Source: a virus (lineage: Duplodnaviria > Heunggongvirae > Uroviricota > Caudoviricetes). Taken from it: DNA of 45,810 bases. The stretch lies in IMG/VR virus record IMGVR_UViG_2521172732_000010; one strand, given 5' to 3'. The translations under genes and the position numbers were made by a program. Positions within the stretch are counted from its first letter, which is position 1. The number at the start of each line of letters is the position of its first letter. Below are positions 14,592 through 14,747 of the stretch, in pieces. Below the pieces are notes generated by a model. The model was not told the DNA's origin. It worked only from the letters and a program-made list of their open reading frames with translations, and searched no databases.

Positions 14592-14666
14592 GGGTCAGTC
14601 GTATAAAGGTCATTATGGAAGGCTGATAACCTTCTTATCGTGGTTCGAGTTCACGCTGTCCCGCCA
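14592..14666 (+). tRNA. tRNA-like gene, anticodon GAT (Ile), with imperfect D and acceptor stems
   Basis: 75 nt; perfect anticodon stem gaagg/ccttc with loop ctgataa; T-arm cgtgg-ttcgagt-tcacg; acceptor has one mismatch; genomic CCA; 5 nt upstream of the second tRNA. Confidence 0.45.
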
Positions 14667-14671
14667 AACAT

Positions 14672-14747
14672 GCTGGTTTAGCTCCAATGGTAGAGCAGTC
14701 GCCTTGTAAGCGAATGGGTAGCGGTTCAAGTCCGTTAACCAGCACCA
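14672..14747 (+). tRNA. tRNA-Thr (anticodon TGT)
   Basis: 76 nt; 7-bp acceptor gctggtt/aaccagc, D-stem gctc/gagc, anticodon loop cttgtaa, T-loop ttcaagt, 3' CCA. Confidence 0.75.

Follow-up and report, generated by a model that had tools for sequence, protein, structure and literature searches.

Positions 14,592 to 14,747 of the window (the whole 45.8-kb stretch of DNA analyzed here, a lambda-like prophage) are, on the evidence of sequence and gene order, part of a module of phages 21, Sf6, and SfI in which the antiterminator gene Q, the late promoter pR′, and the terminator tR′ precede tRNA-Asn(GUU), tRNA-Thr(UGU), and the lysis genes. In this copy, the tRNA-Thr is intact, and its upstream neighbor, which bears the anticodon GAU, is probably a tRNA-Asn decaying under relaxed selection. 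By homology, the GAU gene is not a phage tRNA-Ile but a form of the phages' conserved tRNA-Asn(GUU) that carries three substitutions specific to its lineage; we regard it as a mutated, probably nonfunctional derivative of a known phage tRNA.

ARAGORN called two tRNA genes in all across the window, both on the plus strand and both encoding the 3′ CCA (Table 1). The calls coincide with the tandem pair reported in the initial annotation, down to the 5 nt (AACAT) between its members. In a covariance-model search, each gene aligned with the complete Rfam tRNA model (RF00005, positions 1–71 of 71), with E values of 4e-7 for the first and 5e-11 for the second, and each scored well above 29 bits, the gathering score that serves as curated threshold for this family. 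The second gene is the canonical tRNA-Thr that it had been taken for. It is identical at 76 of 76 positions to the tRNA-Thr of phage 21 (tRNA-Thr21), and its U8, A14, G18-G19, U54-U55-C56, A58, and G53-C61 are complete. The first gene carries GAU in place of the GUU of the tRNA-Asn found in phage 21, in a body that is identical to the canonical Asn gene at 72 of 75 positions.

Table 1. Positions in the window of the late-control region, the two tRNA genes, and other features discussed in the text.
Feature	Position	Strand	Evidence and remarks
Q antiterminator gene (Sf6/phage 21 type)	14015–14529	+	Disrupted by a 4-bp deletion near 14097
Late promoter pR′	14507–14536	+	−35 TTGACA 14507–14512; −10 CATAAT 14531–14536; 11 of 12 positions (promoter scan)
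Late leader terminator tR′	14545–14591	+	Hairpin 14545–14583, then U-tract TTTTTTATTT ending at 14591
First tRNA	14592–14666	+	ARAGORN Ile(gat); Rfam RF00005, 47.2 bits; probably a decaying tRNA-Asn
Second tRNA, tRNA-Thr(UGU)	14672–14747	+	ARAGORN Thr(tgt); Rfam RF00005, 61.5 bits
S21-type class II holin (pinholin)	14865–15080	+	Pfam Phage_holin_2_1, 1.4e-35; homolog annotated in phage 21
Lambda E-type major capsid gene	24974–25999		In-frame TAA at 25670–25672, about codon 233 of 341
IS insertion	1648–2704		1,057 bp, 9-bp target duplication; absent from 15A and L012

The pair lies directly 3′ of tR′, between Q and the holin gene, as in phages 21, Sf6, SfI, and L. The first tRNA starts at the base next to the end of the tR′ U-tract, and, among the protein genes of the late operon, that of the pinholin comes first 3′ of the tRNAs, followed by a DUF1327 gene, the lysozyme gene, and the spanin genes. 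The interval between the holin and lysozyme genes (15,085 to 15,770) holds, besides the DUF1327 (YdfR family) gene, an antisense ORF. Upstream of the tRNAs, pR′ overlaps the 3′ end of Q. Inspection of the sequence between the two promoter hexamers revealed a direct repeat, AATTAGCC, present twice at positions 14,516 to 14,531, and alignment with the annotated pR′ and Q-binding elements of phage 21 and Sf6 showed that it occupies the location of the phage 21 Q-binding element. The tR′ hairpin spans 39 nt, has a folding energy of −20.2 kcal/mol (z score, −4.2; 0 of 200 shuffled sequences as stable), and has the same sequence as the terminators annotated in phage 21 and Sf6. A simple terminator scan did not find tR′, presumably because its stem is above the limits of the scan; folding and homology revealed the hairpin. 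An internal promoter for the tRNAs was considered and rejected: the first tRNA begins one base past the U-tract, which leaves no room for one, and pR′ is the sole strong promoter-like site upstream.

The initial annotation proposed that the tRNAs would be expressed by Q-dependent read-through of tR′. As the design of modules of the phage 21/Sf6 type, this proposal stands. In such a module, pR′ is constitutively active and yields a short transcript that normally terminates at tR′; Q-modified RNA polymerase passes tR′ and proceeds through the two abutting tRNAs, the lysis genes, and the virion genes, and host tRNA-processing enzymes would then cut both tRNAs from the late transcript. In the window copy, however, read-through probably does not operate, because of the deletion in Q and the nonsense codon in the capsid gene of the prophage. 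The Q frame from the ATG at 14,015 halts after 27 codons, within the Phage_antitermQ domain; its intact homolog in E. coli 15A is 172 aa long (Pfam Phage_antitermQ, 1.3e-25). Comparison with three siblings in which Q is intact (15A and the IMG/VR records L012 and L126) reveals the deletion, and it is probably real, since the deleted bases lie outside any homopolymer run.

BLAST against GenBank phages recovered the same block in phages 21, Sf6, SfI, BTP1, and SPN9CC and in many others, and the curated phage 21 and Sf6 records annotate pR′, the Q-binding element, tR′, tRNA-Asn, and tRNA-Thr. The late regulatory region of phage 21 consists of Q21, pR′, the Q-binding element, tR′, tRNA-Asn, tRNA-Thr, and the S21 holin (GenBank OL657228; Guo, Kainz & Roberts 1991, PMID 1704887). 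The window shares with phage 21 this gene order, the abutment of the tRNAs on the terminator, and an S21-type pinholin as the first late gene; the window, phage 21, and Sf6 agree at every position of terminator, spacer, and tRNA-Thr. Aside from the first tRNA, the window differs from phage 21 in its promoter, Q-binding element, and Q, which are of Sf6 type (repeat AATTAGCC, versus ATTGAGCA/AATGAGCA in phage 21), in the frameshift of Q, and in the DUF1327 gene between holin and lysozyme, whereas the phage 21 endolysin gene directly follows the holin gene. Relative to Sf6, identity is 96.7% across Q, pR′, tR′, and the tRNAs, and the Q-binding repeat is the same. The P22-like phages Sf6, SfI, BTP1, SPN9CC, and L differ from the window in that they are viable and carry the canonical Asn allele. 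The cassette is thus already known and offers little for discovery, its annotation and discussion going back to the work on phage 21 and Sf6; the GAU allele is a lesion specific to one lineage and of limited general interest.

Alignment of the first tRNA with the tRNA-Asn of phage 21 and Sf6 gave exactly 3 differing positions of 75. C25U turns the G10-C25 pair into G·U, U35A changes the anticodon from GUU to GAU, and C61U turns the near-universal G53-C61 pair into G·U. U8, A14, G18-G19, the T-loop UUCGA, and CCA are retained. A perfect anticodon arm combined with weak D and acceptor stems had been noted initially for this tRNA, and both the Rfam alignment and folding bear this out: the anticodon stem (GAAGG/CCUUC) is fully paired, the acceptor stem has a U4·U69 mismatch, and the D stem consists of G10·U25, U11-A24, A12-U23, and a U13·U22 mismatch, and thus of two Watson–Crick pairs. 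The Rfam score falls from 55.3 bits for the canonical Asn allele to 52.9 bits with C25U only and 47.2 bits for the window allele, a loss of 8 bits from the three substitutions. In ViennaRNA calculations, which leave out tertiary contacts and modifications but make the direction of change clear, the cloverleaf energy goes from −19.1 kcal/mol (canonical) to −14.7 kcal/mol (window), so that 4.4 kcal/mol is lost; the ensemble probability that all cloverleaf pairs form drops from 0.18 to 0.001, and at minimum energy the window allele no longer folds as a cloverleaf.

To determine how rare the GAU allele is, we searched several collections. Among 121 IMG/VR copies of the gene collected by pattern, 101 are identical to the canonical tRNA-Asn, and the other 20 keep the anticodon unchanged. 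Three scans, which between them took in all non-GTT anticodons in this tRNA backbone, returned only two IMG/VR records, L012 and L126; both are 99.9% identical to the window over 10.5–12.7 kb and differ from it at no more than a few positions. The gene is carried by 364 of 5,426 complete E. coli genomes, a single one of which, that of the O111:H21 strain 15A, has the triple mutant; none of the 364 has an allele with GAT as the only change. A megablast search with the 75-nt window allele is blind to canonical alleles, with which it has no 28-nt exact word in common; the E. coli search was therefore redone with a synthetic GAT-only query, and blastn was used against the phage collection. GTDB genomes (one per species) and JGI metagenome contigs yielded no further copy with a middle anticodon base other than T, and BLAST with the first tRNA found the GAU allele in no GenBank phage record and in no isolated phage. 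Thus, the GAU allele is limited to one prophage lineage. This restriction, found alike in IMG/VR, GTDB, JGI, E. coli, and GenBank phage searches, led us to reject a genuine phage tRNA-Ile family. Sequencing error was likewise rejected as the source of the three substitutions, the same bases being present in four assemblies (the window, CP077477, L012, and L126). In strain CUPF06, the gene has C25U alone and is still annotated as tRNA-Asn, and this allele is a plausible intermediate.

The case also carries a lesson for annotation. In strain 15A, PGAP annotates the tRNA-Thr and nothing at the place of the first tRNA, although it annotates the tRNA-Asn in all other listed E. coli genomes. A tool that reads only the anticodon reports a tRNA-Ile, PGAP drops the gene, and ancestry identifies a mutated tRNA-Asn. 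The omission by PGAP speaks for decay, as an indirect hint that a mature, charged product may be missing.

The mutations sit in a damaged prophage. The window is 99.96% identical to a prophage beside icd in E. coli O111:H21 15A. The two share the in-frame TAA in the major capsid gene, which PGAP annotates in 15A as a pseudogene with an "internal stop"; since the same stop is present in 15A, the prophage lineage as such is unable to make capsids. Found in the window and not in 15A are the 4-bp deletion in Q, the 1,057-bp insertion, and five single-base indels. The insertion encodes a DDE transposase of 322 aa (Pfam DDE_Tnp_1_5 and DDE_Tnp_1), and its size and target duplication are consistent with an IS903-like element of the IS5 family. 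The indels lie in A/T runs at 8,131, 14,587, 21,606, 32,379, and 39,814; three of the five would frameshift late genes (head-tail joining, minor tail L, and side tail fiber), and they may be sequencing errors or further decay. Two further elements were seen in this prophage. A full-length match to Rfam IS009 (229.5 bits) lies at 41,711 to 41,909 on the plus strand, inside the tail fiber assembly gene at 41,368 to 41,949, and a match to the Rfam Lambda cIII thermoregulator element (88.5 bits) at 5,883 to 5,941 on the minus strand confirms a lambda-type early left operon.

Mutations in a late-operon tRNA fit a defective prophage, because a lineage that makes no capsids is not under selection for lytic growth. 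The following course of events explains the data best. A normally invariant tRNA-Asn(GUU) has gained three point mutations in this one prophage lineage. U35A removes the Asn anticodon and with it a main AsnRS identity element, and C25U and C61U weaken the D stem and break G53-C61. From this we infer that the molecule most likely no longer serves for Asn and performs poorly as a tRNA of whatever kind, the probable cause being that selection is relaxed where capsids can no longer be made. The neighboring tRNA-Thr, being intact, would still be able to decode ACA and ACG and to resist the P2 OLD tRNase. Some observations weigh against decay: the first tRNA scores well above the Rfam threshold and is called by ARAGORN, both stem changes leave a G·U pair and no mismatch, and U8, A14, G18-G19, the T loop, and CCA are all in place. 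Moreover, 3 changes in 75 nt is about as dense as the changes in the adjacent Q region, which diverges by 3.6% from that of Sf6. Their count alone therefore proves no accelerated decay, and the case for decay is built on the sites that were hit and on how little the gene varies elsewhere: in an otherwise conserved gene, the changes specific to this lineage hit the anticodon and weaken the fold. The initial annotation had left open whether the GAT tRNA was decayed or atypical; decay is the better supported of the two, and descent from a tRNA-Asn(GUU) with an altered anticodon had been missed.

Loss of Asn identity is to be expected on general grounds. U35, along with G34, U36, and G73, is a major determinant for E. 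coli AsnRS, and it belongs to the U33-G34-U35 motif required for queuosine insertion; the first tRNA should accordingly no longer be recognized as a tRNA-Asn. Were it charged with Asn all the same, through its Asn-type body and G73, it would read Ile codons and replace Ile with Asn upon late expression. Although body and discriminator base are indeed those of the phage tRNA-Asn, all three anticodon bases, U35 included, are reportedly major AsnRS identity elements, and the loss of U35 should lower AsnRS charging by orders of magnitude. A mistranslating tRNA would also do harm, yet this one is merely carried in a silent prophage, and its confinement to a single lineage shows no sign of selection. 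An Asn-charged tRNA that misreads Ile codons is the less likely version of a charged first tRNA, and we consider it highly improbable.

The other version is a change of identity, in which U35A created a functional tRNA-Ile(GAU), a substrate of IleRS that decodes AUC and AUU, the two G·U changes being tolerated or neutral. The anticodon loop, CUGAUAA (G34 A35 U36 A37 A38), is the same as that of K-12 ileV, and a transplanted GAU anticodon can reportedly, by itself, direct charging by IleRS in E. coli. G·U pairing is retained at both stem changes, the covariance-model score is still 47 bits, and four independent assemblies have the allele in the same form. Beyond its loop and T arm, however, the first tRNA is unlike ileV and lacks overall homology with the E. 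coli tRNA-Ile(GAU) class. Further IleRS identity elements in E. coli are reportedly A73, C4-G69, U12-A23, and C29-G41, in place of which the first tRNA has G73, U4·U69, A12-U23, and A29-U41. In addition, G53-C61 is lost, the cloverleaf is weakened by 4.4 kcal/mol, the allele is restricted to one defective prophage lineage, and a benefit is not evident, since E. coli already possesses several ile(GAU) genes and late genes use AUU and AUC less than the host does. We therefore regard a functional switch as unlikely. Some residual Ile-accepting activity may be possible; that transcription and processing still yield a first tRNA that becomes aminoacylated (by way of GAU and, most plausibly, by IleRS) seems quite unlikely. 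If so, it would represent a natural one-step anticodon switch from a phage tRNA-Asn to a tRNA-Ile. Decay of a tRNA-Asn thus remains the preferred reading.

We then compared codon use in the late genes with that of the host. In counts based on the 15A annotation, late genes use ACA+ACG at 39.6, Asn codons at 37, and AUU+AUC at 38 per 1000. The corresponding values for K-12 are about 21.5, about 39, and about 55 per 1000. Late ACA+ACG use is thus about twice that of K-12, which favors codon supply as a role of tRNA-Thr(UGU). Late genes show no enrichment of Asn codons relative to K-12. The comparison of codon usage suggested by the initial annotation therefore fits the Thr gene and fails for Ile, whose AUC and AUU codons are below K-12 levels; codon supply as a reason for an Ile(GAU) tRNA was rejected because AUU and AUC are rarer in late genes than in K-12. 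The anticodon of the phage tRNA-Asn, invariant in hundreds of copies, is altered only in a prophage that is dead for capsid production, which is an argument for selection acting on the Asn tRNA when the phage grows lytically. This small natural experiment points to such selection despite the lack of Asn codon enrichment. The SfI authors drew the same conclusion about Thr and Asn, seeing no codon bias that could account for the tRNA-Asn (PMC3636060).

A different function has support from work on tRNases. P2 OLD kills by cleaving the anticodon stem of host tRNA-Thr(UGU), and the phage 21 tRNA-Thr, which has a short anticodon stem and the changes C28U/G42A, protects against it experimentally (PMC12445682). 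The second tRNA of the window, identical to this tested tRNA-Thr21, shows the features of the OLD-resistant class, namely a UGU anticodon, a G27·A43 mismatch, and U28-A42. The PARIS nuclease AriB cuts the E. coli tRNAs for Lys (UUU), Thr (UGU), and Asn (GUU) between positions 40 and 41, and mutations conferring T5 resistance to AriB are at positions 39 and 41 (PMC12409363). In our alignments, positions 39–41 (with the slash between 40 and 41) read UC/C in the host tRNA-Asn versus CC/U in the phage tRNA-Asn, and UC/A in the host tRNA-Thr versus GC/G in the phage tRNA-Thr. Both cassette tRNAs are therefore unlike their host counterparts at 39 and 41, and the cassette resembles other tRNase-evading phage tRNAs, such as those of T5 against AriB and tRNA-Thr(UGU) against P2 OLD, in having anticodon-stem differences at positions relevant to AriB and OLD. 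It differs from them in that the first tRNA of the window can no longer decode Asn codons.

It can reasonably be supposed from these comparisons that the Asn member of the cassette has a counterdefense role. [quoted passage not shown] The protection that tRNA-Thr21 gives against P2 OLD, the AriB cleavage sites, the T5 resistance positions, and the departure of both cassette tRNAs from their host counterparts at 39 and 41 favor it, as does the absence of an Asn codon bias from the late genes and from SfI. On the other hand, AriB resistance of tRNA-Asn and tRNA-Thr of the phage 21 type is a prediction, the cassette has no tRNA-Lys, the main AriB target, and the enrichment of ACA+ACG means that codon supply explains the Thr gene too. 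A search of the literature available here found no study of the phage 21 tRNA-Asn against PARIS. On balance, we hold a mainly counterdefensive cassette to be possible but somewhat doubtful. This proposition concerns the function of the family and is compatible with decay of the first tRNA in the window; if it is true, the GAU allele has lost that role. Together with the tRNase work, these comparisons suggest a testable counterdefense role for the entire lambdoid cassette.

Other lambdoid phages carry tRNA genes at the same point of the late operon. In Stx phages of the 933W type, the tRNA genes ileZ-argN-argO lie between Q and the stx/lysis genes and encode decoders of rare codons, Ile-CAU and Arg. 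The window resembles 933W in having tRNA genes in the Q-dependent late transcript, but the tRNAs are nonhomologous, and the apparent Ile gene of the window is the result of a point mutation in an Asn tRNA. The 933W-type tRNA is cited as ileX in the SfI paper (PMC3636060, its ref. 28). In SfI and phage L, the late operon has at its 5′ end, downstream of Q, tRNA-Asn(GUU) accompanied by tRNA-Thr(UGU) or another tRNA (PMC3636060, PMC8022706). Which tRNA stands second or third differs: phage L has Leu(UAA), and some IMG/VR contigs have Gly(UCC). Among six IMG/VR records (L028, L068, L069, L008, L095, and L079), cassettes consist of Asn, Thr, and Gly(UCC), of Asn, an uncalled Thr-like stretch, and Gly(UCC), or of Asn alone, so that Asn(GUU) is the constant member. 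In E. coli CUPF06 (NZ_CP182174; L124 in our set), the short late leader contains a gene of ~700 bp with an HNH endonuclease annotation, at positions 747 to 1,450, which separates the −10 region of pR′ from the hairpin of tR′.
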